In this document: piece by piece, positions 419 to 46,900 of the stretch
How the letters are laid out: each line of letters starts with the position of its first letter
Numbering within the stretch: the first letter of the stretch is position 1
From: a virus
Lineage: Duplodnaviria; Caudoviricetes
Virus record (IMG/VR): IMGVR_UViG_3300005764_000019
Location: 1-61,413 of that record
Reading direction: 5' to 3' (one strand)
Length of the DNA stretch: 61,413 nt
Made by a program: the position numbers and the translations under genes
Notes under the pieces: model-generated
Seen by the model: only the letters and a program-made list of their open reading frames with translations
Told to the model about the DNA's origin: nothing
The model's database searches: none

Positions 419-652
419 GTGGGAATTCCAGCACAAGCGTTCGCGCGGGCCGTCTGCTCTGCGTTGCAGGACCGCGAGCTAACCGACGCCTTTGACCTGA
501 TCGTGGCCCGGTACTTCGAGGAGTACACCGACGCCACCGAGCTTGACGGCACGTTCTCCAGCGCCCTGGAAACGGTCTTCGACCTGTGCTTCCCTGGCGG
601 CGAGGATGAGCAGGGCCGGACGTTCGAGGAAGTCGCCACCAAGAAATCGTGA
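419..652 (+). CDS. hypothetical acidic protein (77 aa)
   Basis: GGGAGAGG SD then GTG; the TGA stop lies inside repeat copy 1. Confidence 0.7.
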   Translation: MGIPAQAFARAVCSALQDRELTDAFDLIVARYFEEYTDATELDGTFSSALETVFDLCFPGGEDEQGRTFEEVATKKS

Positions 653-676
653 ACGCTCGCCCGGTTCAGGGGCGGG
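643..676 (+). repeat. conserved intergenic element copy 1 (putative promoter or cassette boundary)
   Basis: GAAATCGT-GAAC-GCTCGCCCG-GTTCAGGGGCGGG. Confidence 0.85.
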
Positions 677-734
677 TAAGGATGAAGGGGGCGGCAGTCG
701 CCCCCAACACCCTGCAATACGGAGGGCATATACC

Positions 735-935
735 GTGGACAAGGAGATTTACACGCTCATCAGCCCGGAGGGCAAGGAGTTTGTCATCGGGGCGTACACG
801 AGCGAGGGCAAGGCCAAGGCGGCTTGCAAGCGCAAGTTCCCGGCGGACTGGCTGAGCCTGTGCGCCTACCCCCTGGCGACCCGCCCGCTTCGTGAGGGCG
901 AGACGGTGACGCCCTGGAGCCGGTGGGAGGGCTGA
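735..935 (+). CDS. hypothetical protein (66 aa)
   Basis: ACGGAGGG SD, GTG at 735 in frame with ORF 543..935. Confidence 0.75.
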   Translation: MDKEIYTLISPEGKEFVIGAYTSEGKAKAACKRKFPADWLSLCAYPLATRPLREGETVTPWSRWEG

Positions 936-936
936 G

Positions 937-970
937 AAAATCGAGAACGTTCGCCCGGTTCAGGTGCGGT
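937..970 (+). repeat. conserved intergenic element copy 2
   Basis: AAAATCGA-GAAC-GTTCGCCCG-GTTCAGGTGCGGT right after the stop codon. Confidence 0.85.
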
Positions 971-1032
971 AACAACAGAGGGGGCGGGCAAGTGACCCGC
1001 CCCCCATCCTGACCTATACGGAGGGTTTCGAC

Positions 1033-1317
1033 GTGGCCGACAAACAGACCAAGGAGCAGATCACCCAGGACTTCCGGGACGGGAAGATCGACGCCGACGA
1101 GATGATGCGGCGCATGAAGGAAGTGGACCGCAAGCCGCCTCGCTTCGAGGTTGCCGCCAAGTCCGGCTGGCTGTCGATCTACTTCGACGGACTGCGCTTC
1201 CCGGTTAGCCTGCCCTACGACTGTGCGGTGAGCCTGTTCTCCGACGAGATCGTGGCCGCAGCCCGCGCCTACTTGTCCGCGAACAAGGGCCGGTTCAAGA
1301 TCAAGGGCGCGAAGTAG
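1033..1317 (+). CDS. hypothetical protein (94 aa)
   Basis: GC hairpin, ACGGAGGG SD, GTG start. Confidence 0.8.
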   Translation: MADKQTKEQITQDFRDGKIDADEMMRRMKEVDRKPPRFEVAAKSGWLSIYFDGLRFPVSLPYDCAVSLFSDEIVAAARAYLSANKGRFKIKGAK

Positions 1318-1330
1318 ATCACCCTCCGTC

Positions 1331-1368
1331 CGCCCCCAGGTGCCCGCCGGCCTGGGGGCGTTTTATTT
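1331..1368 (+). terminator. intrinsic terminator
   Basis: CGCCCCCAGG/CCTGGGGGCG stem followed by TTTTATTT. Confidence 0.75.
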
Positions 1369-1397
1369 CGAGAACGCTTCGAGGTTTCAGGTGCGGT
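1364..1397 (+). repeat. conserved intergenic element copy 3
   Basis: TATTTCGA-GAAC-GCTTCGAGG-TTTCAGGTGCGGT. Confidence 0.85.
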
Positions 1398-1461
1398 GAG
1401 GATATAGCCCCGCGAGGATATAGCCCGGTGAGGATATAGCCCCGCGAGGATATAGCCCCGA
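1398..1461 (+). repeat. 4 x 16-bp tandem repeat GAGGATATAGCCCSGN
   Basis: Units start at 1398, 1414, 1430 and 1446. Confidence 0.95.
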
Positions 1462-1484
1462 CCCCATATACAGGAGAACCGACC

Positions 1485-1820
1485 GTGGCCAACACCAACC
1501 GCCAGGACGCCCAGCACTACCTGGAACGGCTGCTGCGCGACCTGTCCCTGTCCACCGGGGACCACTACAACGCCCGCGCCGTTGCCGAGCAGGCCAAGCT
1601 GTTCCTGAACGACTCCCAGGCCAACAAGGGCCTTCAGTCCAGCCACTTCTACGCAATCGCCAGCCTGGTCGAGCGCTGCGTCTACCGCGCCCTGAACATC
1701 GACACCGGCAAGACGCACATCGAGTGCCAGATGAACGTGCGCCGCAAGGTGGAGTCCTACGACGACTACCCCAGCATCGAAGACCTGCTGGAGCAGGAGA
1801 AAAATTGTGAACGCTCCTGA
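1485..1820 (+). CDS. hypothetical protein (111 aa)
   Basis: AGGAG SD, GTG start; the 3' end runs into repeat copy 4. Confidence 0.8.
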   Translation: MANTNRQDAQHYLERLLRDLSLSTGDHYNARAVAEQAKLFLNDSQANKGLQSSHFYAIASLVERCVYRALNIDTGKTHIECQMNVRRKVESYDDYPSIEDLLEQEKNCERS

Positions 1821-1834
1821 AGTTCAGGGGCGGT
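1801..1834 (+). repeat. conserved intergenic element copy 4
   Basis: AAAATTGT-GAAC-GCTCCTGAA-GTTCAGGGGCGGT. Confidence 0.85.
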
Positions 1835-1878
1835 AGGGACAGAGGCAGTCACCCACTCATCCCGAAGGGAGCTTTACT

Positions 1879-2301
1879 GTGAAGCCGATCAAGACCCTGA
1901 GCGCCGAGGTCCGCATCAACCGCCTGCACGCCGTCGTGCGTTACCAGGCCAACGCCAAGAACCCCAAGAAGGGGGGCACGGCGATTGAGGTGCGCTACGG
2001 CGTGCCGGGCCAGGCCAGCACCGTGCTGGGCACCGCCACCATCGGCGGGCGCTGGTCGCAGGACCAGGCCGTGCGGGAGTTCCGCCGCGACCCCCGGCGG
2101 TTCGGCTGGGACAAGCCGATCCCGGCGGACTCGGCGGACATCGGCATCCGCCTCGGCCCGGTGGCCGTGGCCGACTTCTCCGGGGCGTGCAACGTCAGCA
2201 CCCCCGACGAGGCGCTGGCCTTCTTCCGCCAGGCGTCGGGCCGCTTCGAGCGTGCCGAGCCGGGCTGGACCTTCGCGGTGGGCCTCAAACTGGTGGCGTG
2301 A
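1879..2301 (+). CDS. hypothetical protein (140 aa)
   Basis: AAGGGAG SD, GTG start, GC3 bias. Confidence 0.8.
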   Translation: MKPIKTLSAEVRINRLHAVVRYQANAKNPKKGGTAIEVRYGVPGQASTVLGTATIGGRWSQDQAVREFRRDPRRFGWDKPIPADSADIGIRLGPVAVADFSGACNVSTPDEALAFFRQASGRFERAEPGWTFAVGLKLVA

Positions 2302-2321
2302 GCCGCCGGCCCGCCTCGCCC

Positions 2322-2352
2322 AACCCCCAGGGATGACCCCTGGGGGTTTTTT
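2322..2352 (+). terminator. intrinsic terminator
   Basis: AACCCCCAGGG/CCCTGGGGGTT stem plus T-tract. Confidence 0.8.
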
Positions 2353-2425
2353 GTTGCGCCCAGGCCAAGCCAACACCAGGCCCGCCAGGGCGACCAGGCC
2401 AGGACGGCGGCAGGCCCGCCAGGGC

Positions 2426-2513
2426 CTCTAGGATCGCTCAGGACGGCTTGGGAAGGCTTCAGGCGGGGTCAGGGCTGCCCGATATATCCGAGGGCTTATA
2501 AGCGATCCTAGAG
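2426..2513. repeat. 13-bp inverted repeat after a CCAGG-rich patch
   Basis: CTCTAGGATCGCT (2426-2438) and AGCGATCCTAGAG (2501-2513). Confidence 0.8.
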
Positions 2514-2532
2514 CGTGCGGCAGATGGAGAAA

Positions 2533-2566
2533 TAAATCGAGAACGCCTGAAGGTTTCAGGTGCGGT
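2533..2566 (+). repeat. conserved intergenic element copy 5
   Basis: TAAATCGA-GAAC-GCCTGAAGG-TTTCAGGTGCGGT. Confidence 0.85.
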
Positions 2567-2612
2567 AAGGGCAGAGGACGGAAGACATCACTTCACTTCG
2601 GAGGGCTGAACG

Positions 2613-2819
2613 ATGAACGTTACGTTGGTGCCGGCGTATGGCAGGGACTACCGCTCGCAGAAGGAAGTCAAGGCAGCGTGGGACGCGGGCCAGGACTTCC
2701 AGATTTCGTGCTTCGGCCATCCCCACGATGGCCGCTACATCAACAAGCCCCAGGCGGCGGGGCAGTCCTACAACGTCCGCTACAAGCGGCTCACGCAAAT
2801 CTGCGTTGTGAAGGGCTGA
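2613..2819 (+). CDS. hypothetical protein (68 aa)
   Basis: CGGAGGG SD, ATG start. Confidence 0.8.
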   Translation: MNVTLVPAYGRDYRSQKEVKAAWDAGQDFQISCFGHPHDGRYINKPQAAGQSYNVRYKRLTQICVVKG

Positions 2820-2826
2820 GAGAGGC

Positions 2827-2911
2827 GCTGCGTCACGCAGGATAAAGGGCGATTTCCGCTCGCTCCATCAGGTCAGGAGTGACCCTTCCACGCCGTCCTG
2901 CGTGACGCAGC
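2827..2911. repeat. 16-bp inverted repeat enclosing nested stems
   Basis: GCTGCGTCACGCAGGA and TCCTGCGTGACGCAGC; inner AAGGG/CCCTT and CGCTCC/GGAGTG. Confidence 0.8.
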
Positions 2912-2966
2912 TTCTTTCATGCTACGGTTTCGATCCAACGTGTCCAGGCTTTAGGAGGGTTCTGCC

Positions 2967-3218
2967 ATGATGCACGGCGTCGAGATGCGCGACGGTGGGG
3001 AGTTCGACTTGCGACCCAAGGGCGACCGGCGCATCCCCCTGGAGCGGGTGTATATTTCGGTTGGCGAGGTTCTGATCGGCCAGGTGCGCTGCTACGTCAC
3101 CGAGAGCGACCTTGTGGAGCGTGCCGACATTGCCCTGGCGGACGGCCTGGGCATTCTGGAGGGCGTGCCCTGCGCCTACTTCCAGTTCCTCGACAGGAAG
3201 CGGGATGAGGAGTTGTAA
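2967..3218 (+). CDS. hypothetical protein (83 aa)
   Basis: AGGAGGG SD, ATG start. Confidence 0.75.
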   Translation: MMHGVEMRDGGEFDLRPKGDRRIPLERVYISVGEVLIGQVRCYVTESDLVERADIALADGLGILEGVPCAYFQFLDRKRDEEL

Positions 3219-3393
3219 AACAAGAAACAGCGAGGCGGTGTAAGCCGCCTCGCTGTACGCCTGTACATAGCCTGGGTGCCCAATACTGTACAGCAGTATA
3301 CTGAACAGGTGTACACACCCAGGGGCCTCTCCCCACGGTGTACAATGGTGATTTCCCAGCTTGCAACATTGTACTCCGGGGCCTGCGGCCCGC

Positions 3394-3440
3394 TACTGTG
3401 CGCATGTACACTACATCATGTAGTGTACATGCGCACAGTA
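3394..3440. repeat. 47-bp palindrome (23-bp perfect arms, 1-nt centre)
   Basis: TACTGTGCGCATGTACACTACAT-C-ATGTAGTGTACATGCGCACAGTA. Confidence 0.95.
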
Positions 3441-3476
3441 TATAGCCAGGGCGCGCCAGCGCGGCAAAAAGCAAAA

Positions 3477-3510
3477 TAAATCGAGAACGACCGCGCATTT
3501 CAGGGGCGGT
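3477..3510 (+). repeat. conserved intergenic element copy 6
   Basis: TAAATCGA-GAAC-GACCGCGCA-TTTCAGGGGCGGT. Confidence 0.85.
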
Positions 3511-3514
3511 CATG

Positions 3515-3772
3515 GTGTCGGAAATGACAAGCCCCTGACCGGGGCGGACGCCAAGAGGGTGTCGAGGGGATCGAAAGTGTCCTGCTGCGGCAGGACCGCC
3601 ACGAATAAGGGAGCGCTGTAGGTCGAAGCCTGGGCGTGCGCACGAGCCAGGAAGAGGACACAAGCGAGCCGAATAAGTGCAATCCCTGTGGTGCGACATC
3701 TGCGGCGAATGTCAGTCACCCCCTGACGGATGGGTGCGCGGCCTGCAAGCTGCCTAGGCGCTTGCGGGCCGA
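3515..3772 (+). ncRNA. putative structured RNA upstream of the tRNA-like element
   Basis: No convincing ORF; serial hairpins (GCCCC/GGGGC, GACGCC/GGTGTC, GTCCTGC/GCAGGAC, GGCCTGCAAGC/GCTTGCGGGCC) and two GAATAA motifs. Confidence 0.5.
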
Positions 3773-3776
3773 TTAT

Positions 3777-3850
3777 CCTGGTGTAGCTCAACGGGAGAGC
3801 AGAGCCGAGCGCGCTCGGCTTGGTTGTGGGTTCGACTCCCACCGCCGGGA
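3777..3850 (+). tRNA. tRNA-like element with non-canonical anticodon arm (no assignable anticodon)
   Basis: Acceptor CCTGGTG/CGCCGGG plus A73, U8A9, D arm GCTC-AACGGGA-GAGC, T arm GTGGG-TTCGACT-CCCAC; the anticodon arm is a 20-nt near-palindrome. Confidence 0.7.
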
Positions 3851-3878
3851 CTTTAGCCACTTTACGGAGGGTCAAGGT

Positions 3879-4082
3879 ATGCTGAAGGGCACTTACACGA
3901 CTCGGCAGGGGTTCGTTATCCACTGCGAGTACGCCACCGAGGCCGAAGCGCGGGCGCGGCTGGCCTACCTGGACGCGCAGGAGGAGCTTACGCAGCGCGT
4001 AGCCTGGACCGATAGCGGCAGCGTGCGCTTCAACTACAACCGCGAAGCGGAGGTTATCCGCAAGCTGCTGAAAATTTCGTGA
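3879..4082 (+). CDS. hypothetical protein (67 aa)
   Basis: ACGGAGGG SD, ATG at 3879; stop inside repeat copy 7. Confidence 0.8.
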   Translation: MLKGTYTTRQGFVIHCEYATEAEARARLAYLDAQEELTQRVAWTDSGSVRFNYNREAEVIRKLLKIS

Positions 4083-4106
4083 ACGCTTCCGCATTTCAGG
4101 GGCGGA
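4073..4106 (+). repeat. conserved intergenic element copy 7
   Basis: AATTTCGT-GAAC-GCTTCCGCA-TTTCAGGGGCGGA. Confidence 0.85.
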
Positions 4107-4158
4107 AGCTATATCGGGCGGGCCGAAGCCTGCCCCATCTCAGGAGCCAATACGACCG

Positions 4159-4401
4159 ATGGCTGCGACCTACAAAGCCTGCCAGCACTGCGACACGCCC
4201 ACAAGGCGGCGTTGCCGCGACTGCAAGCGGCCCGTCTGCATGGGCTGCGTGGTCCACGAGCAGTGCGAGAACTGCGTGGACGCCGAAACGTTCAACCAGA
4301 CCAGCCGTTACGCCCACGGCAACCACGACTTGCGCTGCTCGCACTACATCGGCCAGTGCGACCAGAGCTATCACGGGCGCTGCTCGCCCGACGTGGCGTG
4401 A
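4159..4401 (+). CDS. small Cys/His-rich putative zinc-binding protein
   Basis: Four CxxC pairs; AGGAG SD. Confidence 0.75.
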   Translation: MAATYKACQHCDTPTRRRCRDCKRPVCMGCVVHEQCENCVDAETFNQTSRYAHGNHDLRCSHYIGQCDQSYHGRCSPDVA

Positions 4402-4402
4402 G

Positions 4403-4436
4403 AAAATCGAGAACAACCGCCCCGTTCAGGGGCGGT
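4403..4436 (+). repeat. conserved intergenic element copy 8
   Basis: AAAATCGA-GAAC-AACCGCCCC-GTTCAGGGGCGGT(TGTTCT), 14-bp stem. Confidence 0.9.
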
Positions 4437-4478
4437 TGTTCTTAGGCAGCATCACTCACCTTTACGGAGGGTCAAGAC

Positions 4479-4781
4479 ATGGCTTCTTTCCGCACCATCA
4501 CCGCCCGTTTCGCTGGCCAGTGCCGCCGGTGCAAGGGCGCGATCAAGGCCGGCGAGCGCATCCGCTACGGCGGGCGCGGCTTGACGTACCACTTCGCCAA
4601 CGACTGCGCCGGCAAGCCGGCGGACGACGGCGAGGAGCGCGGCGAGGACAGCCGGGACGGCGGCGAGTTCGTGCCCTGCTGGAAGGGCGGGCGTTGTGAA
4701 GACTACCCGTGCTGCGGCTGTCACGGCCTGCACGGGCGCGACCTGTACACGCCGAGCGAGCCGCCCGACGTGGATTTCTGA
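4479..4781 (+). CDS. small Cys-rich protein (100 aa)
   Basis: CxxC...HxxxxC and a C-terminal GRCEDYPCCGC; leader CTTTACGGAGGGTCAAG identical to that of gene 3879. Confidence 0.8.
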   Translation: MASFRTITARFAGQCRRCKGAIKAGERIRYGGRGLTYHFANDCAGKPADDGEERGEDSRDGGEFVPCWKGGRCEDYPCCGCHGLHGRDLYTPSEPPDVDF

Positions 4782-4782
4782 G

Positions 4783-4816
4783 AAAATCGAGAACTACCGC
4801 CCCGTTCAGGGGCGGT
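4783..4816 (+). repeat. conserved intergenic element copy 9
   Basis: AAAATCGA-GAAC-TACCGCCCC-GTTCAGGGGCGGT(AGT), 11-bp stem. Confidence 0.9.
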
Positions 4817-4900
4817 AGTAGTGTCGGGAGCAACAACATTCGGCGTGCGGGGGCTGGCCCGGCCCCATGACTTCCCCTGGGAACCAATCGGAGATTTACG

Positions 4901-5242
4901 ATGCGTCACAAGGTTTCCATCACCGTCCCCTCGACTACGGGCGTCAACAAGCCCGCCCCGGAGCTTCACGCGGAGTACGTCGAGAAGGCTTGCCGCCTGC
5001 TGGCGGTCCTGTTCGGCGGGTTCACGGCCCTGGAAGGGCGAGGCGGCTGGGTGAGCGAGACGTTCGGCTTGGTGGTCGAGCCGATCACGGTTGTCTACGC
5101 GGCTTGCACCGAAGCCAAGCTGGAAGCCGGCTTGCCCAAGGTGCGGGCGCTGGCCGCAGAGATTGCGGAGGCGATGACTCAGGAATGCGTGGCCGTCGAA
5201 GTGGACGGCACGCTTGAGCTAGTGGCCGCAGAGGCGGCATGA
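4901..5242 (+). CDS. hypothetical protein, DUF3574/PII-like
   Basis: GGFT..EG.GGW...E......QECV pattern; GGAG SD. Confidence 0.65.
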   Translation: MRHKVSITVPSTTGVNKPAPELHAEYVEKACRLLAVLFGGFTALEGRGGWVSETFGLVVEPITVVYAACTEAKLEAGLPKVRALAAEIAEAMTQECVAVEVDGTLELVAAEAA

Positions 5243-5251
5243 GCCACAATG

Positions 5252-5284
5252 GGGATGCGCTGAGTAGCATACTCAGCGCATCCC
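5252..5284. repeat. 15-bp perfect hairpin closing the small-gene array
   Basis: GGGATGCGCTGAGTA-GCA-TACTCAGCGCATCCC. Confidence 0.9.
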
Positions 5285-5566
5285 AAATGCGCAAGGCGCA
5301 CATATGAGATGCGCATAGTGCGCAATTAACAACTGCGAAATACTTTTGAAAAAACCTGGCGCGACACCCCTGGGAGAGTACAATGTCATAGCCATGTCGG
5401 CCACTTTCTTTCCTTTCTCCCAAAGATAAAAACCCCGGCCCAGGTTTTCAGGGACTCCATCTCAAGTTTGACACCCCTTCGTTTCCAAAAAAATCGCGGC
5501 GGCAACTTTTTCGCCGGCCATGTAAGTATTTGCCGCCCCTGGACCTACATAGGGGAAAGGGGGTAC

Positions 5567-6739
5567 ATGGCCAATCCGGCATATTTCGACCGCCGCAAGC
5601 AAACGTCCACAACCACGGGCACCGGGTCATTCACCCTGGCCGTGCCGTCCGGCTCCTGGTCCAAGCTGAACACCGCCGGTGCCGCAACCATCACCATCTC
5701 TTACTGCATCGCCCACCAGACGGCCAGTGATTGGGAAACCGGCGTGGGCACGATTGATTCGACCAGCACGACGTTGACGAGGAGCGCGACGGACGGCAGC
5801 GCCGGGGCCAGCACGCTGGTGAACTTTTCAGGTGGCACCAAGGACGTGTTCATCACCCCCATCGCCGCCAACTTGCCCCGCGTCAGCCCGTTGATTTGTC
5901 AGGGAAGACTGACGGTGTTGAGCGGTGCGGCGGCGGGCGAGGCGTCGTCGGTCAGCACCATTTACTTCACCCCGTACCTCGGCAGCCAAATCGCCGTCCC
6001 GGAGACATCCTACGGGGCGGCACAGTGGAAACTGTTCGAGTTCACGGAAATGAGCCTGGCCCTTGCCGGTTTGACCGCCGGCAACTGCTATGATGTATAC
6101 ATTTACGACAACGCCGGCACTCTGACGTTGGGCACGCAGGCGTGGGCCAACAACACGACCCGAAGCGTGGCCGTCACCAACATCGACGGCATCCCGATGT
6201 TGACGGTGAACCAGCGTTATTTGGGAACGTTTTACGCCCAGACCGCCACCACCACGTCGGACACGGGCCGTTATAGGTTCTTGTGGAATTATTACAATCA
6301 AGTGCCCCGGACGCTGGCGAATTTCCCCAATGTCGGCAACTGGAGCAGCCCCGGCACGTTGGGCTGGCGTGCCCAGAACGCCGACGCCACCAAGGCACGG
6401 GCGGTGGAGTTCATCTGGGGCCTGGGGCCTTTGAAGCCCGTGAGCGTGCGGGCCACCTGCTACTGCAACAACCCCACCGCCGGCACCTACGCCCAATTGG
6501 GCCTGACGCTGGACCCTTCCGGCGGCAACTGGATTCCGAGCCAGGTGGACTGCAACGTGGCGGAATTTTTCGGCGGCATCGCCAACTACCTGTCCGCCGA
6601 ATTCAATAAAACCGTGGCCGTGGGTTATCATTATCTCCAGCCGACCGAGGCCATCCAGGTCGGCACCGGGACGGTCACTTGGTTCGATTACGTCGTCAAC
6701 CGCTTCACGGCTGGCATTAGCGGGACGATGTGGGCCTAG
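5567..6739 (+). CDS. tail fibre/receptor-binding-like protein, paralogue 1
   Basis: DRRKQTSTTTGTG...WETGVGT N-domain; GRLT...YFTPY...RYLGT...LWNYYN core shared with four downstream genes; start at MANP. Confidence 0.7.
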   Translation: MANPAYFDRRKQTSTTTGTGSFTLAVPSGSWSKLNTAGAATITISYCIAHQTASDWETGVGTIDSTSTTLTRSATDGSAGASTLVNFSGGTKDVFITPIAANLPRVSPLICQGRLTVLSGAAAGEASSVSTIYFTPYLGSQIAVPETSYGAAQWKLFEFTEMSLALAGLTAGNCYDVYIYDNAGTLTLGTQAWANNTTRSVAVTNIDGIPMLTVNQRYLGTFYAQTATTTSDTGRYRFLWNYYNQVPRTLANFPNVGNWSSPGTLGWRAQNADATKARAVEFIWGLGPLKPVSVRATCYCNNPTAGTYAQLGLTLDPSGGNWIPSQVDCNVAEFFGGIANYLSAEFNKTVAVGYHYLQPTEAIQVGTGTVTWFDYVVNRFTAGISGTMWA

Positions 6740-8914: not shown

Positions 8915-10084
8915 ATGAATTTCTGGACGGACAGCACGGGCCGAATCCTTTCGCCCTTCACGGCCCCGTGGTCATTGAGGCCGGGCGGGCGGTTGACGTT
9001 GACGAGCGGGCTGCCGGTGACGACCAGCGACGTGACCAACGCCACGACGGTTTATTACACCCCCTACGTCTCCAACGTCATTACCCTGTGGAACGGCAAC
9101 GCCTGGCAGCCGATTGCCTTCAATGAAGTGTCGTTGTTGTTACAGTCGATCTTCCAGACGCGGCTGACGACCACGGGCGTCACCAACGTGCCGGTGAATT
9201 CGCCCCTCATCAAAAGCATCCCCTCCACCACCGGCATCCAGGTGGGGGACATGGTGGACGAACACAATTCGGTCTTCGGTGGCGGCTGTTACGTCATTTC
9301 GGTGGACAGCGCCACGCAGGTGACCACCAACACGTCCAGCAACGTCGGCGGCACCAATACTTTTTATTTTAACAACCCCTGTTATGACATTTTCGGCTAC
9401 CTCGACACCAATAACGGCTTGATGCTGACGACGGTGGGATGGGCCAGTCGCACGACGCGGGCGACGGCGCTGGCCCTGACGGACGGCCTCCTCACGCTGT
9501 CCACCGACAAAACCCGCTTATACTTGGGCACCATTTATCTGACGAGCGCCTACGCAGGGAAGTTTGCTACCAACTCCTACTTCACCGCCGACTCCATGCT
9601 CAACCGCCTGGTGTGGAACAATTACAACCGCGTGGTTCGCCCGATGTTCTACCAGCCCTCGGTGGGAAGCTGGGCTTACGGTGCGGCGGCATGGCGTTTT
9701 GCCAACGGCTACAACGGGATGGCGTCCGGCGGGGCCACTTCGCCCCTGGCGGCGGTGAACTTCGTGTGCGGCCAGAGCGAGGACTCGGCATCGGCGGAAG
9801 TGTTGTGTCCGATGAACTCCTCGGCGGGCACGGCGGGCAACGTGGCCCTCGCCATCGACACGTCGCTGTCCGCCCCGGCCCCGACATCGGTGGATTCCGG
9901 GAACGAAGTGTCCACCGGGGAGGGGGGGATTATCGGCGTCTCCGACGCCAGTTGCAACCGCCCGTTCGCCGCCGGCTACCACTACATCGGCTGGCTGGAA
10001 TATTGCCGGGCGGGCACCCTCACCATGTACGGCCTGGCCGGGCCGGGTAACCTTGGTTGCATGTGGGGATCAATCCGTGCCTAG
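8915..10084 (+). CDS. tail fibre/receptor-binding-like protein, paralogue 2
   Basis: MNFWTD...PGGRLTLTSG...YYTPY...DKTRLYLGT. Confidence 0.75.
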   Translation: MNFWTDSTGRILSPFTAPWSLRPGGRLTLTSGLPVTTSDVTNATTVYYTPYVSNVITLWNGNAWQPIAFNEVSLLLQSIFQTRLTTTGVTNVPVNSPLIKSIPSTTGIQVGDMVDEHNSVFGGGCYVISVDSATQVTTNTSSNVGGTNTFYFNNPCYDIFGYLDTNNGLMLTTVGWASRTTRATALALTDGLLTLSTDKTRLYLGTIYLTSAYAGKFATNSYFTADSMLNRLVWNNYNRVVRPMFYQPSVGSWAYGAAAWRFANGYNGMASGGATSPLAAVNFVCGQSEDSASAEVLCPMNSSAGTAGNVALAIDTSLSAPAPTSVDSGNEVSTGEGGIIGVSDASCNRPFAAGYHYIGWLEYCRAGTLTMYGLAGPGNLGCMWGSIRA

Positions 10085-10099
10085 CCCCCTACATAAAGT

Positions 10100-11212
10100 A
10101 TGAACTTCTGGAACGACAGTCAGGGCCACGTTCTGAGTCCGTTGAATGCGCCTTGGGGTTACCCGCCCGGTGGCCGGCTGACGCTTACCACCGCCACCCC
10201 GGTGACGAGCAGCGACGTGTCCGGCGTCAACATGATTTACTACACCCCCTACACGTCCAACCGCATCTCCCTGTGGAACGGCGTTTATTGGGTGCCGCTC
10301 ACGTTCACCGAACTGTCGATGGACCTGCACGGCTTCGCCATCAGCCAACGCCCCACGGTCACCGGCACGACGACGGCCAGCAGCCCGGTCATCACAGGCA
10401 TCACGTCCACCAGCAATCTGGCCATCGGGGACTTGCTCGATCTGGGCAACAACTTCCTGGGGGACGCGGCCATTGTTTCGGTGGACAGCGCCAGCCAGGT
10501 GACCATGAGCAAGAACTGCCTCGCCGGTGGCGGCGGCAGCAACACACTTTATTTCTACTGCCCGCTCTACGACTTCTTCGCGTCCCTGGACGCCAACCAG
10601 AACGTGGTCCTGACCACCCAACCCTGGACCAACGCCACCACGCGGGCCACCAACGTAATTTTTACGGACGGGCTTTACACGCTGGCCAGCGACAAAACCA
10701 AGTTATATTTGGGGACCATCCAACTCAACCAGTACCATCTGGCCGTGGCCTACGCGACCGACGCGGCGGCGAGGCGGGGCGTGTGGAACGCTTACAACCG
10801 CGTCCGCCGGCAACTGCTGTTCCTGCACCCAACCGGCTCGTGGGCGTATAGCGGTGGCTACCGGCAGGCGGGCGGCAACCAGACGGCGATGCTGTGGTGG
10901 GTGAACGGCATGGTCGAGGAGTCCATGTCCCTGGAGGTCATTTGCTGCATCAACAGCCCGCAAAATACGGCGGGAAACGTCAGCATCGGCCTCGACAACA
11001 TCAAGACGCCCAGCGCCGACCAGTCCAACGAAGTTTCTGCGGGCGTTGCCGGCGGTATGATCGGCATATCCCGTGCTACTTACAACCACTACGTCGCCCC
11101 CGGCGGACACTACGCCTCCTGGCTGGAAAACGTCCGCGCCCCCTCGGTGACCTTTTATGGCAGTTCCGGGGCTGCTTACACCAGTTCCCTCCGGGGTGTT
11201 ATGCAGGGATAA
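10100..11212 (+). CDS. tail fibre/receptor-binding-like protein, paralogue 3
   Basis: Same core motifs as paralogue 2. Confidence 0.75.
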   Translation: MNFWNDSQGHVLSPLNAPWGYPPGGRLTLTTATPVTSSDVSGVNMIYYTPYTSNRISLWNGVYWVPLTFTELSMDLHGFAISQRPTVTGTTTASSPVITGITSTSNLAIGDLLDLGNNFLGDAAIVSVDSASQVTMSKNCLAGGGGSNTLYFYCPLYDFFASLDANQNVVLTTQPWTNATTRATNVIFTDGLYTLASDKTKLYLGTIQLNQYHLAVAYATDAAARRGVWNAYNRVRRQLLFLHPTGSWAYSGGYRQAGGNQTAMLWWVNGMVEESMSLEVICCINSPQNTAGNVSIGLDNIKTPSADQSNEVSAGVAGGMIGISRATYNHYVAPGGHYASWLENVRAPSVTFYGSSGAAYTSSLRGVMQG

Positions 11213-11236
11213 TTTCCTTGCGCCACTAAATAAGGA

Positions 11237-12319
11237 ATGATCTTCTGGAACGACGCCTGGCAGCGAGTCAATTCGTACTTTACGGTGCCGCGCGGCAACC
11301 CGCCCGGCGGCAGGTTGACGCTGACCACCGGGCAGCCGGTGACCTACCTCGATACTACGGCAGCGACGGTGTATTACACGCCTTACGCCTCCAACTACAT
11401 CGCCCTCTGGAACGGAGTTTACTGGCAGAGTTTGGTGTTTCTCGAAACCGCCTTCGCCTGTAGCGCCCTGGCCAGCATTATCCTGTCCTCCACCAGCAAC
11501 ACGATCTCCGGCTCGCCGCAGATTAGCGGCATCCCCTCCACGTCGGCGTTGTCCGTGGGTAATTTGGTGGACTGCGCCAACTTCCCCAACGGCACCACCA
11601 TCACGTCCATCGTCAGTTCGACCCAGGTGAACTGTTCGGCCAACGCCACGGCAACCAGCACGATTGCCATGCGCTTTTATTATTCCCTCTACGACATTTT
11701 CGGCAGCCTCGACCCGAACAACGGCCTGGTGCTTAGCAGCCTGGGCTGGACCAACCTGACGGCCAGGGCGACGGCGCTTGCGCTGACGGACGGGCACTAC
11801 ACGCTCTCGACCGACAAGACCAAGTTATATTTGGGGACGGTGATGTTGACCAAGGCCCAGCAGGGGGTGCTGTTTCAGGCCACGGACAGCGCGACCTGGC
11901 GGGGCGTGTGGAACTACTACAACCGGGTGCCCCGGCAACTGTTTTTTTCGTCGGGCGGCGGTTGGACGTGGGCCAGTGCGTCCTGGCGGCAGGCAGGCGG
12001 CAACGCGGCGGCGCAGGTGGCGTGGGTGATGGGGGCGAGCGAGGAGCCGGTGTACCTTCAAGTCGTGAACCAGATGAACTCCAACATCGGCACCGCCGGC
12101 AACGTCGGCATCGGCATCGACAACCTCACGAACGGGGTGGCGGACGCCAACAATGAAACGTCGGTCGGCTCCAGTTCGGGCGGCATCATCGGGGTCACCA
12201 TGTCGGTCTACCAACGGTACGTCCCGGCGGGCTACCACTACGGGGCCTGGCTGGAGTACGCCCGCGCCGGCACCATGACGGTGGGCAACGGTGTTCTACG
12301 AGGGGCGGTTCAAGGTTAG
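11237..12319 (+). CDS. tail fibre/receptor-binding-like protein, paralogue 4
   Basis: Same core motifs as paralogue 2. Confidence 0.75.
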   Translation: MIFWNDAWQRVNSYFTVPRGNPPGGRLTLTTGQPVTYLDTTAATVYYTPYASNYIALWNGVYWQSLVFLETAFACSALASIILSSTSNTISGSPQISGIPSTSALSVGNLVDCANFPNGTTITSIVSSTQVNCSANATATSTIAMRFYYSLYDIFGSLDPNNGLVLSSLGWTNLTARATALALTDGHYTLSTDKTKLYLGTVMLTKAQQGVLFQATDSATWRGVWNYYNRVPRQLFFSSGGGWTWASASWRQAGGNAAAQVAWVMGASEEPVYLQVVNQMNSNIGTAGNVGIGIDNLTNGVADANNETSVGSSSGGIIGVTMSVYQRYVPAGYHYGAWLEYARAGTMTVGNGVLRGAVQG

Positions 12320-12352
12320 CCGCAAAATGCGGCGACCGCTCATAAATAAGCC

Positions 12353-13444
12353 ATGAATTTCTTCACCGACAACCAGGGCCGCGTGCAGTCGGTGCTAACC
12401 GCCAGCTACGGTTACCCGCCCGGCGGCAGGCTGACGCTGGCGAGCGGTGGCCAGCCTTGCGCCGCCGACGTGGCGGCTGCGGCCAGTGTGTATTACACCC
12501 CCTATCGCGGCAACCGCATCTCCCTCTGGAACGGTTACGCCTGGCAGACGCTCACCTTTGCTGAATTGACACTGGCCGGCACGTCCGTCGCGTCCACCGG
12601 CCTGCGCATGGCCACCACCGGCAACACCACCGTCAACACGACCACCATCACCGGCATCCCGTCCACAACCGGCCTTGCGGTGGGGGACTTCGTGGATTCG
12701 GCCAACTTCCCCAACGGCACCTGGGTGAGCGCCGTCAACAGCGCCACGCAGGTGACGGTCACCGCCAACGCCACGGCGACGACTACGGGCGTGGCGATCC
12801 GGTTCTATGCCCAATTGTATGACGTGTACGGCTACTTCGACCCCAACAACGGCCTGGTCCTGACGACCCTGCCGTGGGCCAGCCGCTCGGCGCGGGCGAC
12901 GAACATTTCCTTTTCGGACGGCTTTTACGTCAACACCAACGACAAGACCCGCCTCTATTTGGGCACGCTGGGGTTGGCAAGCGCCAGCCAGAGCGGCAGC
13001 AACACGATGTACGACACGCAATATGCCCGTCAGCTTTACAACTACTACAACCGAGTGCGGCGGCGGGCCTGGTGCAGCGACTTCTCGCCTCACACCTACG
13101 GCACCGCCAGCTTCAGGCCGTGGAATAACGGTTCGGTCGCAGCCGGAAACTACTGGAACATCAGCACGGTCGTGGGCGTGGCCGAGGATTCTATGGTCTA
13201 CACCCTGATGGCCGACATGAACGGGGCGACGACTGGCGACCTCCCCGACATCGGCGTGGGTCTGGACAGCACCACCGGCGTGTTCTTCGATATGTTTTAC
13301 CAGTATTACCGCGAACGGGCGAGCCGCGTCTTCAACACCAGCGTCGGGCCTGGCTATCACGTTTATTACGTCCTTGAGACGATGGCATCGGGGACCAGCG
13401 CGAACTTCAACGGCATGGAATTGTCCATTGACTTGTGGATATGA
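12353..13444 (+). CDS. tail fibre/receptor-binding-like protein, paralogue 5 (divergent C-terminus)
   Basis: Same core; different C-terminal ~130 aa. Confidence 0.75.
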   Translation: MNFFTDNQGRVQSVLTASYGYPPGGRLTLASGGQPCAADVAAAASVYYTPYRGNRISLWNGYAWQTLTFAELTLAGTSVASTGLRMATTGNTTVNTTTITGIPSTTGLAVGDFVDSANFPNGTWVSAVNSATQVTVTANATATTTGVAIRFYAQLYDVYGYFDPNNGLVLTTLPWASRSARATNISFSDGFYVNTNDKTRLYLGTLGLASASQSGSNTMYDTQYARQLYNYYNRVRRRAWCSDFSPHTYGTASFRPWNNGSVAAGNYWNISTVVGVAEDSMVYTLMADMNGATTGDLPDIGVGLDSTTGVFFDMFYQYYRERASRVFNTSVGPGYHVYYVLETMASGTSANFNGMELSIDLWI

Positions 13445-43987: not shown

Positions 43988-46900
43988 ATGGCAGATTTTG
44001 TTGACGCCTTTGATCGAGTGATTAGCAGCATCGACCGTGTGAACACGACCACGACCGAAGTGCGCGAAATGCTCAGGACGTTAATGACCGGCAACGTCGG
44101 CACACCCTCGGTGCCCGGCAAACCGGAAGACAAAATCGGCCCTTCCCTTTCCTCCATTCAGCAGAACATCGCCCAATTGCAAGCCGTCGCTCAATCGAAC
44201 GTGGCAGCCTCCGTACATAACGGCAATGTCCTGGCTCAGATCAAGGGCCTCATCGAGCAATTGAACGCAAACTTCGACAAGGAAGTGGGTGCCGCTAAGT
44301 CCCATGTAGACGCGGGCGTTGCCGCCGCCCACGCGCCTGCCAAGGGTGGCATGGTGGATAAAGGCGATTATGGCAAGGGTGGTGGCAGCACGTTGGAGAA
44401 GGCCAACCAGAGTCTTGAGCAAAATATCACCGGCATTCTCGGACACGTTACCAGCATGGCCGAGAAGCTGAACCAGATGGCGGGCCACATTCAGGAAATA
44501 CGGGACGCGGGACTCGCCAAGAAAAGCCTGGCTGTTAAGGACACGCTGGCCAACCAGACGTTGACGACCATCAAGGATACCCTGGTCGAATGTTGTAAGA
44601 ACGTCACCAATATATCCAATGCGTTAGGCGGGAAGGCAGCCGCCACGGTCGGTGCAAGCCTTGCGGCGGGGACGGTTCCTGGCGCTCCTGCTGCCGCCAC
44701 TCCTCCTCCACACGAGCCGCCCGAACCTGCTGCCACCACTCGAACGAAAACCAGGAAAAAGCCCCCGCCAGGTATCGACGCCGAGGATATGCTGCACGAT
44801 TTCGAGTATGAATTGCACAATATCGACTACGGCACGGGCATGAGGAGCCATTTCTACCGCGTTTCCTCGCAGTGGCTCAGCAGTCTCGAACAAGGCATCA
44901 TGGGTTTTGGCGATAAGGCCAAGACCGTATTGCAGTCGGTATTCGGCGGGGTGGGTGCCGAATTCAAGTTCATCAAGGACATTCGGGCAGCCGCTTACGA
45001 AACCGCCGGTGTTACTGGCGAGGCCCAGAAACTTCAACGGCAGTACGAGAACATCGGCAAGACGGTATATCTCACGGGCGTAGATCGGGACGAGTTCCAG
45101 AAGGCATATCTCAAGAATCTGCGTGCCGGCATCCGCGACTCCAAGCAAGCCCAGGCCATCGCCACGGCACAACTCAACACCGAGAAGCAGTTGGGGATGC
45201 AGGCCGGTGAACTGGAAAGCACGTTCCAAGAATGGACGATGGCCGGGCGCATGACCAATATGCAGGTCGCGGAGATGGGCCGTGGGATGCGCGAAGTTGC
45301 CCGTAACACTGGACTCACCGGCGAGGCATTAAAGAAGGCCGTCAGCACCGGGCAGGAGTTTATCACCCAACTGCGTAACGCCGCCCAACTAACCGCCAAC
45401 GCCGCCAAGAACGTCCTTGAGATCGCCGCCAACGCCCAGAAACTTGGCGTTGAGAAGGCCATGAACCCACTCCTGAAAGCGATGACCAGCAGCAATGAGT
45501 TGCTGGTAAACGCTTCCAAGGAGACGCAGAGTCTTCTGTTTATTGCCGCCGGTCATGCTGGTCGCACCCAGGAATTGATGCAAGGTACGGTGCTGCGCAC
45601 CAAGCAAGGCATCAAGGATATGAAGAAGGGGTTTGAGGCCATCCTCAAGTCGTTCGGCGTCGAGAGTGCCGAGGCCATCGACCAACTTTCCGACTCGGCC
45701 AAATTCAGCCTCAACATGAATATCAAGGCTGCGTTCGGGATGGAGTTGGGTGAGTTCCGCAACACGATGGAGGCATTAGGCGAGTCGGGCAAGGGTTTGG
45801 CCGACCGCCTGGCCGACATCAACAAGGAACGGCAAAAGAACCTCACGCTTGAAGAAAAGACGACCCTGCTGGAGAAGGAGCGTGCCCTCAAAGCAGCCGC
45901 CTCGCTTTCCATCGTTACCGCACTGGATGAAGCGGCCAAGGGTGCCAAGAACATGGACCAGGCCCTCGCCAAGTTTGGCGACCGACGCAAAGATTTCGAG
46001 GGTGATCTGGAGGCAATGGGTCATGCCTGGACCAGTAACGCCGACGCCGCCAAGGCTGCCATCACGGAAAGCATTCAGAGCATCAACATGGGTCTGAAGA
46101 AGGCGGGTAAGGCGGAACTCAAGATCGGGACAAAGGAGATTGAGGAAGCCCTCAAAGACCCGGCCAAGTTCCGCGAGTTGGGCGATAAACTTTCCAAGGC
46201 CGACCAAGAATTGGCGACGGCCCAGAAGGCTCAACTCGATCCGATGAGCAGGCTGCACCAGGGCATGATGGAAGTCAACGACTCCATCAGGAACTTCGCC
46301 CAGGGAGCGATAAGCAAGCTGCTGGCTCTGGTGGGTACTGCGGGTTTGATCGCCACCATCTTGACCTCCCAGATTCTCAAGACCCTTATCGCCATCAAAC
46401 TGTTCCTGCGAAGCATCAATGCGTCGGGTGAGGGCGTAGAACTTAACGTACTTCAGGAAGGGATGCTTGCTTGGCAGAAGAAAATGCCCAGATTCCTTGG
46501 TGGAAAATCCAAGGAAGAAGTCAAGGCGTTAAAGGCCCAAATGCTCGCTGCCAACGCAGGTTACGACGTGGCAGCGCAACAGAAAGTATACCAGGCAACC
46601 TTGATGAAGGAGCAGGCCAAGCGAGGAACGCCGGGTGCCGGGGGAGGCGCGGCGGGCGGGGCCGACGTTGCTGATATAGAAAAAGCCATCGGCCTTGCAC
46701 CGGCGAAAACTGCGGCGGCTACTGCGGCTGCCGCACCCGCCGAGGTCGCTTCCAAGGACGCGATTACTCACGACATCCTCAAGCAAGGTTTCCAGACCAC
46801 CTGGGACTTGCTGCGCCAAATTGTCAACTGTGTCTGCAAGCAGATTAGGGAGGAGCAGACCGCCAAAGCCATCGACAACATGGGCAAGAAGCTCGACACC

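Follow-up and report, generated by a model that had tools for sequence, protein, structure and literature searches.

Two-box repeats with optional stem-loops before small genes of a very large soil phage, a putative lineage-specific promoter cassette

The DNA analyzed here (the window) is the whole of IMG/VR record IMGVR_UViG_3300005764_000019, a linear 61,413-base record of a tailed virus (Caudoviricetes) that came from soil metagenome runs and is estimated to be about 12% complete. Near one end of the window, an array of small genes carries nine copies of a repeat consisting of two conserved boxes separated by 10 variable bases, and in a subset of the copies these bases form a stem-loop with one of the boxes. 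From sequence comparison, and with roughly even confidence, the repeat is read here as a putative lineage-specific two-box phage promoter of early or middle small genes, to which a stem-loop that likely acts on read-through RNA may be added as an option.

The repeat and its place in the gene array

The pattern TCGWGAAC-N10-TTCAGGNGCGG, scored with up to 2 mismatches, matched the window nine times, always on the + strand, between positions 647 and 4815 (whole elements, 644-4829). Only 0.02 matches were expected from dinucleotide shuffles, and none of 100 shuffles reached nine. Among metagenome contigs, the motif scan found one true relative, the last 10.4 kb of a 71.8-kb contig (L016), with three exact copies. 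The ungapped alignment of all 12 copies, nine from the window (w1-w9) and three from L016 (m1-m3), contained 16 invariant columns in two blocks, with 10 variable bases (N10) between them, the first of which was usually G. Box 1 is AAATCGAGAAC, ending in GAAC, and box 2 is TTCAGGGGCGGT, the GCGGT of which starts 17 nucleotides (nt) after GAAC. The copies were not independent, with 79% likeness between w8 and w9 and 75% between w1 and w2 over 53 nt, and inverted GAAC...GTTC ends were present in five of the nine. An earlier, sequence-only reading of this DNA had described a variable N9 within a repeat spanning 1801-4820; the variable stretch was recovered, but it was 10 nt long in the alignment, and that span holds copies 4 to 9, copies 1 to 3 lying at 644, 938, and 1365. 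The array, the copies, and two intrinsic terminators among them are as follows, with p values for the hairpins referring to shuffles of N10 and the background consisting of 92 chance matches, both described below.

419-5242, + strand: array of small genes with the motif, comprising genes 419-652, 735-935, 1033-1317, 1485-1820, 1879-2301, 2613-2819, 2967-3218 (no motif upstream), 3879-4082, 4159-4401, 4479-4781, and 4901-5242
644-689, + strand: w1, box 1 TCGTGAAC, N10, box 2 TTCAGGGGCGG; 8-bp stem with two G-T pairs (655-662/670-677) and 7-nt loop, not significant (p = 0.115, RNA)
938-983, + strand: w2, no hairpin above background (p = 0.69); starts 3 nt after the stop of gene 735-935
1331-1360, + strand: intrinsic terminator after gene 1033-1317, 11-bp stem followed by TTTTATTT, the T-run of which merges into box 1 of w3
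1365-1410, + strand: w3, N10 pairing only with box 1, G-U rich (p = 0.81); terminator directly 5'
1802-1847, + strand: w4, 9-bp stem with one G-T pair (1812-1820/1824-1832), loop AGT (p ≤ 0.001)
2322-2348, + strand: intrinsic terminator after gene 1879-2301, 11-bp stem followed by TTTTGTT, 186 nt before w5
2534-2579, + strand: w5, 8-bp stem with one G-T pair (2544-2551/2555-2562), loop GGT (p = 0.022, RNA; 0.049, DNA)
3478-3523, + strand: w6, 6-bp stem GACCGC/GCGGTC (3489-3494/3506-3511), 11-nt loop (p = 0.17, RNA; 0.056, DNA)
4074-4119, + strand: w7, 8-bp perfect stem GCTTCCGC/GCGGAAGC (4085-4092/4102-4109), 9-nt loop (p = 0.014, RNA; 0.002, DNA)
4404-4449, + strand: w8, 14-bp perfect stem (4410-4423/4429-4442), loop GTTCA, then TTGTTCTT (p = 0.001; 0 of 92 background matches lower)
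4784-4829, + strand: w9, 11-bp perfect stem (4793-4803/4809-4819), loop GTTCA (p = 0.000; 1 of 92 background matches lower)

The copies were closely tied to the ends and starts of genes. In five copies (six counting w1), the motif started between 18 nt before and 3 nt after the upstream stop, which lay either 3 nt 5' of box 1 or was the TGA within the TCGTGAAC/TTGTGAAC variants; in total, six copies had TGA(G)AAAA directly 5' of box 1 or TGA within it. The TGA in box 1 of w1 ends the open reading frame (ORF) 419-652, and the stops of genes 1485-1820 and 3879-4082 fall within box 1 of w4 and w7, respectively. In eight of the nine copies, the end of box 2 was followed after 43-88 nt by the next start codon, with a Shine-Dalgarno (SD) sequence; the ninth, w6, was followed by 267 nt of noncoding DNA and then by a tRNA-like gene. 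The array genes tested had third-position GC contents of 0.82-0.96, with SD-like GGAG upstream, and the only one with a PHROG match was 4901-5242 (phrog_3543). Searches of the motif copies against Rfam gave nothing; the only matches were a tRNA and spurious microRNA-model matches on a palindrome at 3394-3440.

Hairpin potential of the copies

The hairpins of the window had stems of 6-14 bp, loops of 3-11 nt, and folded spans of 17-33 nt, with G-T pairs in w1, w3, w4, and w5. The partner of N10 differed from copy to copy: it was TTCAGG in w4 and w5, GGGGCGG in w1, w6, w8, and w9, the same segment in w7 with the stem centre 1 nt downstream of that in w6, w8, and w9, and box 1 in w3. In w5, a pair forms between the C of GAAC and the first G of GCGGT, which is the register of an equivalent motif family in a relative (G004, below). 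Between w8 and w9, one pair was compensated, from A-T to T-A (alignment columns 12/34). A separate 11-bp hairpin lies at 979-1005, after w2. All of the arm pairs quoted in the sequence-only reading were found in the DNA, including GACCGC/GCGGTC of copy 6 and the fully paired stems of copies 8 (14/14 bp) and 9 (11/11 bp). Its further details held as well: the unusual A of copy 7 is matched (T15-A33), copies 4 and 5 use other registers (CCTGA(A)/(T)TCAGG, with 3-nt loops), copy 1 pairs with wobbles (8 bp with two G-T pairs), and copies 2 and 3 pair weakly.

Hairpin potential was compared with three null models. When N10 alone was shuffled (1,000 shuffles per copy), the summed minimum free energy (MFE) of the copies had a z score of -5.9 (RNA) or -6.5 (DNA); five of the 12 copies (w4, w5, w7, w8, and w9) reached p ≤ 0.05, w6 was borderline, and w1-w3 and m1-m3 were not significant. 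Folding energies no better than those of shuffled controls, the outcome that the sequence-only reading had named as decisive against selected structure, were thus seen in w1-w3 and not in w4, w5, and w7-w9. When the 5' halves of copies were joined to the 3' halves of others, the native combinations were better (P = 0.002-0.004), an effect driven by w7-w9. The third null consisted of 92 distinct chance matches of the pattern in unrelated genomes; in genome contigs, the strict pattern had no match, and a looser one gave 90 single-match stretches, which were used only as chance background. This background is conservative because its variable parts are higher in GC (0.62 versus 0.55). Watson-Crick stems of at least 6 bp occurred in five of nine window copies versus 9 of 92 chance matches, and stems of at least 8 bp with G-T pairs allowed in seven of nine versus 10 of 92, with none in the three L016 copies. 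By MFE of the whole element, the set was not lower than the 92 chance matches (Mann-Whitney p = 0.08-0.16), and only w8 and w9 were exceptional.

The variable bases had been proposed to covary so as to keep a hairpin. Stems did exceed N10 shuffles in five of the nine window copies, but their centres fell at four alignment positions, and a fixed register found no support: with the register of w8 imposed on the 12 copies, 49.4% of cells were paired versus 47.6 ± 1.4% in shuffled sets (69 of 500 as high), with a covariation score of 0.131 versus 0.118 (77 of 500 as high). The hairpins of the window are therefore not one covarying structure. Perhaps three or four independent stem origins are represented, because the copies are related in pairs (w8/w9 and w1/w2). 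The broader proposal, that structure is selected as well as sequence, is supported for a subset of the copies, and most of all by the covariation in G004 described below, but not as a single fixed fold.

The + strand folded better than the - strand in 11 of the 12 copies. RNA and DNA, or the + and - strands, are not separable in this way, because the chance matches share the bias, box 2 being G-rich. A terminator scan flagged the stems of w8 and w9 as terminator-like on the - strand, because the complement of the A-run in box 1 supplies a T-run there, and these two stems might stop antisense transcription into the array. On the + strand, w8 was the only copy resembling an intrinsic terminator.

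An equivalent motif in relatives and the turnover of gene order

Relatives of the phage were recovered through a giant ORF of the window (described below); an alignment query gave 36 loci, and the giant ORF alone gave none. One relative, G004, is complete at 532 kb, with a giant ORF 40% identical to that of the window. It carries the motif TTCCGAACC-N16/17-GTCTTC at 34 sites with ≤1 mismatch; the + strand bears 31 of them, and a dense array at 213-230 kb holds the majority. The distance from GAAC to the first G of the second box is 17 nt in the window family and the G004 family alike. The G004 sites often lie directly after TGA/TAA plus AAAG, and 32 of the 34 have an SD and an ORF within 200 nt (median, 34 nt). 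Downstream of them are helicase, clamp loader, ParB-like, PAPS reductase, and PNK-like genes alongside many ORFans, a set that would fit an early or middle gene class. G004 also encodes a 322-amino-acid (aa) sigma factor with regions 2 and 4, which matched RpoD/RpoS-type models best, below their cutoffs, and a gp55-like sigma factor.

In the G004 family, the spacer itself forms a stem, closed by a pair between the C of GAAC(C) and the G of GTCTTC. For the covariation analysis, 23 of the 34 sites were used, after 7 with a 17-nt spacer and 4 exact duplicates were left out. In these, 67.4% of cells were paired versus 56.4 ± 2.3% in shuffled sets (0 of 500 as high) and 31-46% when the partner was slid, and the covariation score was 0.237 versus 0.134 ± 0.028 (0 of 500). 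Six of the eight pairs had changed on both sides, and 19 cells had done so versus 10.9 ± 2.8 in shuffled sets (4 of 500); distinct stems included TTGC/GCAA, TCCG/CGGA, and TCGC/GCGA. By spacer shuffling, 8 of 27 distinct cores were significant. A stop triplet lay ≤8 nt upstream of seven of these eight hairpin-bearing cores versus 8 of the 19 others (Fisher p = 0.038, with a regular expression blind to frame).

These results bear on a neutral account, in which the promoter is real and the hairpins are functionless, template switching having perfected quasi-palindromes seeded by the G-rich box 2, together with gene conversion between copies. Perfect stems (14/14, 11/11, 8/8, and 6/6) are what template switching would produce. 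Furthermore, hairpins are absent from three or four of the nine window copies, all three L016 copies, and 19 of 27 G004 cores, registers differ, hairpin presence is not kept at orthologous sites, and the overall MFE does not separate the set from chance matches. The account is nevertheless opposed by the enrichment over N10 shuffles and, by longest stem, over the 92 chance matches, by the same feature in the independent G004 family, where both-sided changes in six of eight pairs were separated from the slid controls, and by the association of hairpins with copies that abut an upstream stop. On balance it appears unlikely, though it keeps appreciable weight.

Three genes that follow motif copies in the window or L016 have orthologues in G004, each with a G004-type site upstream:

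Window 2613-2819 (after w5): G004 221664-221864, 57%; upstream site 221588
Window 4901-5242 (after w9): G004 229213-229542, 46%; upstream site 229144
L016 9300-10409 (after m2/m3): G004 216799-218016, 43%; upstream site 216720

In a further relative, G003, the same three orthologous genes each start 48-97 nt after a third motif, TAGGTCCAGTGTACCCTAG.GGGTGT (the TGTACCCTA motif), so that window genes 2613-2819 and 4901-5242 have orthologues in both relatives. Conserved genes with three lineage-specific upstream motifs are expected of promoter turnover with a co-evolving factor. The TGTACCCTA motif, which is related to a ATTGTACTCC box of the window and L016, forms gene-by-gene arrays in G003 (51 sites on the + strand) and G005 (71 on the + and 4 on the - strand), and in G004 it occurs 15 times on the + strand, interleaved with GAAC-type sites. 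The ATTGTACTCC/TGTACCCTA boxes probably represent another class of promoter or operator in the clade. Five ATTGTACTCC boxes lie at 8564-9020 of L016, before m2/m3, and another is at 5383 of the window, on the - strand.

The window motif itself was absent, at up to 2-3 mismatches, from the 15 records related through the giant ORF (G001-G015). In viral contigs, the motif scan gave seven single matches, all within genes and read as chance matches. L016, in which m2 and m3 lie in tandem 67 nt apart before one gene, has in common with the window one recognizable gene (tblastx segments of ~55-70%), a 16-nt GGATATAGC tandem repeat, and ATTGTACTCC boxes; no gene that the motif flanks is common to the two. 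Its three copies folded no better than background (0 of 3), and a 370-aa protein of L016, used as a query, recovered no relatives. The closely related G001 is syntenic with window positions 17.5-61.4 kb, at ~40-95% in the strongest tblastx segments (most 55-90%). The G001 contig ends where the left part of the window would begin, and no dispersed 10-mer family was found in it. Gene 5468-6739, the query that led to G001, is the only gene common to the window, L016 (4966-6177, - strand), and the left part of G001. In L016, its homologue has the opposite orientation with respect to the motif array, and in G001 (~219.8-223.0 kb) it occurs in triplicate in another context, beside a long repeat protein.

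Strain data were drawn from four soil runs, with contigs of patchy cover and 80% likeness. In these, 7 of 26 joint endpoints lay within 15 nt of a motif copy versus 11% expected (P = 0.023); counted by joints, 5 of 13 were near motif copies (P = 0.13). In two of the runs, a contig has 157 letters in place of window 3802-4448, and in one soil contig the 3' edge of w5 is fused to that of w3. Taken with the gene contents of L016 and the window, these data lend some weak support to the view that motif copies mark points of gene-order difference, or shuffling, among related phages. In one run, the orthologue of copy 2 had 9 of its 10 N10 bases changed within flanks ~87% alike, and its new N10 could, by eye, pair with TTCAGG instead of GGGCG. 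Replacement as a block suggests conversion rather than point changes, and it counts in favor of the neutral account given above.

The joint endpoints also bear on a possible role of the copies as single-strand recombination sites, attC-like or similar, that would mobilize small genes as cassettes. The array of small ORFans bounded by repeats, the inverted GAAC...GTTC ends in five of nine copies, the wholly different gene content between copies in the window and L016, and the excess of endpoints near copies would all suit such sites. The attC site is a 57- to 141-nt imperfect palindrome in which structure rather than sequence is conserved, and the elements described here differ from it on both counts, with folds of only 17-33 nt and at least 19 bases conserved in sequence (16 invariant columns). 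In addition, all copies lie upstream of genes with promoter-typical SD spacing, and no integrase was found among the 66 window ORFs searched against PHROGs, 18 of which were also searched against Pfam-size domains. No dedicated site is needed to explain the shuffling, for which homologous recombination between repeats is enough, as has been proposed for the PeSL (promoter-early stem-loop) cassettes of T4-like phages (PMC2839356). The single-strand recombination site put forward in the sequence-only reading thus gained no support, and the probability left to it is very small.

Several other features lie among or beside the array genes. Genes 4159-4401 (after w7) and 4479-4781 (after w8) encode small Cys-rich proteins with CxxC pairs, zinc-ribbon-like and without a family match. 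The tRNA-like gene downstream of w6 (3777-3851, + strand) was given a 4-nt anticodon (cgcg) by ARAGORN and scored 45.1 bits with the Rfam tRNA model. In place of the 7-nt anticodon loop of the model, the gene has 10 nt; an expanded-loop tRNA is one possibility and a tRNA-like structure another. A 16-nt tandem repeat, GAGGATATAGCCCC, of four or five units lies just 3' of w3 (1394-1473), and is ~85% alike in L016 (6650-6773), in another context. Seven TGTACA palindromes lie in the noncoding stretch before w6 (3262-3440), together with one ATTGTACTCC box and, at 3394-3440, a perfect 23-nt palindrome. Two inverted repeats lack the motif, one with 23-nt arms 53 nt apart at 2820-2918, between genes 2613-2819 and 2967-3218, and the other a 20-nt pair at 5247-5289, after gene 4901-5242.

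Putative function, phage context, and closest known systems

The placement and conservation of the copies argue for a promoter. All nine window copies lie on the coding strand; w3 and w5 follow canonical terminators, so that a new start signal is needed there; and 16 columns are invariant in two phages with only one recognizable gene in common. An element acting in RNA, as a processing or stability site of a polycistronic early transcript in which a single-stranded A-rich box 1 is followed by a hairpin, would account for the position right behind stop codons, the A/U-rich leader GAAAAUCGAGAAC before the stem-loop in most window copies, the G-U pairs needed in w1, w3, w4, and w5, and boxes unlike the sigma-70 consensus. 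Behind the strong terminators that precede w3 and w5, however, a processing site would have little substrate, and the tandem m2 and m3 before one gene are a typical promoter arrangement. Moreover, the invariant bases are kept in copies that do not fold, and in G004 the spacing of the boxes is fixed at 16-17 nt with the spacer free, which is a pattern of DNA recognition. RNase III, in addition, requires longer stems than these of 6-14 bp. An RNA-level site of this kind is considered improbable.

The hairpin might instead work in DNA, either extruded under negative supercoiling as a switch that turns the promoter off or on, or read by a phage polymerase as in phage N4. The stems lie exactly within the putative promoter, those of w5 and the G004 family are closed by a pair between the final base of box 1 and the initial base of box 2, and perfect palindromes of 11-14 bp (w8 and w9) could extrude. 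An N4 hairpin placed between the -35 and -10 elements of rrnB abolished activity in a gyrase-dependent manner (PMC4496689), so that a hairpin within a spacer is able to respond to supercoiling as a switch. The same review describes the N4 early promoters as having a 5- to 7-bp stem and a 3-nt loop with a central purine, the centre fixed at -11 in all three promoters, and hairpins that form on the template strand and need gyrase and single-strand-binding protein. It also records a conserved sequence with an inverted repeat in which the nonconserved stem bases are free if pairing is kept, and a location at the genome end before early genes, both of which recall the window. The hairpin geometry that defines the N4 promoters is lacking: 3-nt loops occur here only in w4 and w5, the others being 5, 7, 9, and 11 nt, stems reach 14 bp, and the position of the hairpin is not fixed, with four registers and 7 of the 12 copies not above N10 shuffles. 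Furthermore, the template strand would have A-C mismatches where w1, w3, w4, and w5 have G-T pairs, which may favor the nontemplate or RNA strand, although the strand asymmetry of folding equals that of chance matches, and many copies have no hairpin. An N4-type hairpin promoter, as the sequence-only reading had suggested, is not borne out by these loops, stems, and registers or by the absence of the hairpin from three or four of nine window copies and all three in L016.

The gene content of the window gives no sign of a virion RNA polymerase (vRNAP). At a GC content of 0.55-0.64, the window encodes a prohead protease, a UvrD-type helicase, a CCA-adding-like enzyme, a dihydroorotate-dehydrogenase-like protein, a gp2-like DNA end protector, a baseplate spike, and one giant ORF:

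43988-55834: giant ORF of 3948 aa, between the gp2-like end protector and the baseplate spike

In this protein, a conserved N domain of ~500 aa (approximately residues 285-800) precedes hydrophobic segments and 81- to 83-aa (243- to 249-nt) tandem repeats. Its 34 homologues, 2290-4553 aa long, lie on contigs that reach 673 kb. The best PDB match was a designed repeat protein (E = 0.011), with nothing at E ≤ 0.001 and no match to N4 vRNAP. No PHROG matched the giant ORF at E ≤ 1e-5, Pfam gave only a subthreshold ZW10_C2 match, and the N domain had no PHROG match at a useful level; a PF00940 search was empty but carries little weight, because its control was empty too. By position, repeats, and composition, this is probably an exceptionally long tape-measure-like protein, unlike N4 vRNAP. 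The homologues and the PDB result place the phage in a clade of very large tailed phages, not in the N4 group, and no vRNAP gene was seen in the window, which holds ~12% of the genome. Action of the hairpin in DNA is therefore rated as improbable. Its fuller form, in which a palindromic spacer would control genes at the DNA level by bringing the boxes together on extrusion and so switching the promoter, or in which an unseen polymerase or sigma factor would read the fold, is a long shot; if true, different cassettes would be tuned to the topology of the DNA as a half-megabase genome enters.

Four tandem paralogous genes (360-389 aa) lie elsewhere in the window, at 8915-13444, three of them matching phrog_17105, and each has a ATAAATAAGG-like box directly 5' of its ATG. 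The box may be late-promoter-like, because the close relative G001 encodes a T4 gp55-like late sigma factor. The T4-late box TATAAATA had only one match, which was not informative.

Promoters of extracytoplasmic-function (ECF)-like alternative sigma factors have a -35 element ending in AAC and a 16- to 17-nt spacer. Likewise, GAAC ends box 1 here, at a fixed 17 nt from the second box, and a phage sigma factor with regions 2 and 4 was found in G004 only, with none in the window, L016, or G001, all of which are fragments. The GCGGT and GTCTTC second boxes and the invariant TTCAGG of the spacer are not known from a described consensus. The GC-rich stem-loops directly after stops, above all the 14-bp stem of w8 followed by TTGTTCTT, also recall intrinsic terminators; they differ in that eight of nine copies have no + strand T-run, and the true terminators of the phage (1331-1360 and 2322-2348) look different.

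The closest likeness, extending to nearly every detail, is to the PeSL cassettes of T4-like phages (phi1/RB49, PST, and nt-1; PMC2839356 and PMC4122927). These are described as having a stop codon in an AT-rich stretch, two boxes, and stem-loops "in various positions", usually lying between the two boxes or covering the -10 box, with G-T pairs and polyG/polyC tracts, followed by an SD and a start codon (PMC2839356). Promoter and terminator activities have been measured for them, and a role in the shuffling of ORFans has been found (PMC2839356, PMC4122927). The elements of the window have the upstream stop in an A/T-rich stretch, two boxes, and then an SD and a start codon, with a stem-loop that lies in some copies between the boxes and in others over the second, and with G-T pairs and C/G runs in the stems. 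They also stand in dense arrays before small ORFans, and, as with PeSLs, the gene content between them may differ among related phages. The likeness is partial at w3, where the terminator is upstream of box 1 instead. The elements differ from PeSLs in having lineage-specific boxes of the GAAC type that are not sigma-70-like, in belonging to a very large soil phage that is not T4-like, and in having a U-rich tail after one of nine stem-loops. The cassette was thus classed as working like a PeSL, not as a PeSL, because of its non-sigma-70 boxes, its phage clade, and its few U-runs. Neither literature searches on phage sigma factors and huge-phage promoters nor excerpts of PMC7162821 yielded anything on such cassettes, and in this material the transcription signals of very large uncultivated phages are largely undescribed; the motif string itself was not searched.

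In the favored reading, the two-box promoter would drive small early or middle genes at one end of a very large phage fragment. The 10 free bases of the spacer would, in about half of the copies, have evolved to pair with box 2, with either its TTCAGG or its GGGGCGG part, so that the resulting stem-loop falls within the spacer or covers box 2, its position differing from copy to copy. This stem-loop would be optional and take no part in promoter recognition; it would most likely act on the read-through RNA of the upstream gene, as an attenuator or as a 3'-end hairpin insulating the cassettes from one another, a role that has been proposed and in part demonstrated for PeSLs. The repeated cassette would, in addition, mark the points at which gene order differs between related phages.

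A number of observations weigh against this reading. The box sequences do not match the sigma-70 consensus, and no sigma-70-like site was found at any copy, the only one in 6 kb lying elsewhere on the - strand (0.8 expected). No sigma or RNA polymerase gene was found in the 61-kb window or L016, both of which are fragments, and the G004 sigma factor had no tblastn match in either. As for the stem-loop, a T-rich tail follows it on the + strand in w8 only, and the hairpins of G004 were not flagged as terminators, in a region without an excess of terminator-like sites (7 versus 10.2 ± 3.0); a terminator role is weakly supported by sequence for these reasons. Furthermore, w5 has a hairpin despite the strong terminator already upstream, and the strand asymmetry in folding energy equals that of chance matches (p = 0.26-0.35). 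In G004, the structure was drawn from the same sequences as were tested, many of which are close paralogues, and stops were scored without regard to frame. Finally, at orthologous positions, a hairpin is present on both sides at w5/221588 and on one side only at w9/229144 and m2-m3/216720.

As seen in the window, L016, G004, and G003, these very large (~0.35-0.67 Mb) uncultivated phages have dense arrays of small genes, each gene with its own conserved signal. The exchange of this signal from one lineage to the next, with the genes retained, points to specificity factors that the phages encode and that co-evolve, and stem-loops recur in the spacers, as in the PeSLs of T4-like phages. No new principle is implied unless the reading of the hairpin as a DNA structure proves true. 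The motif sequences may be used for testing promoter specificity and cassette insulation and may serve as a marker for the early regions of related metagenomic phages.

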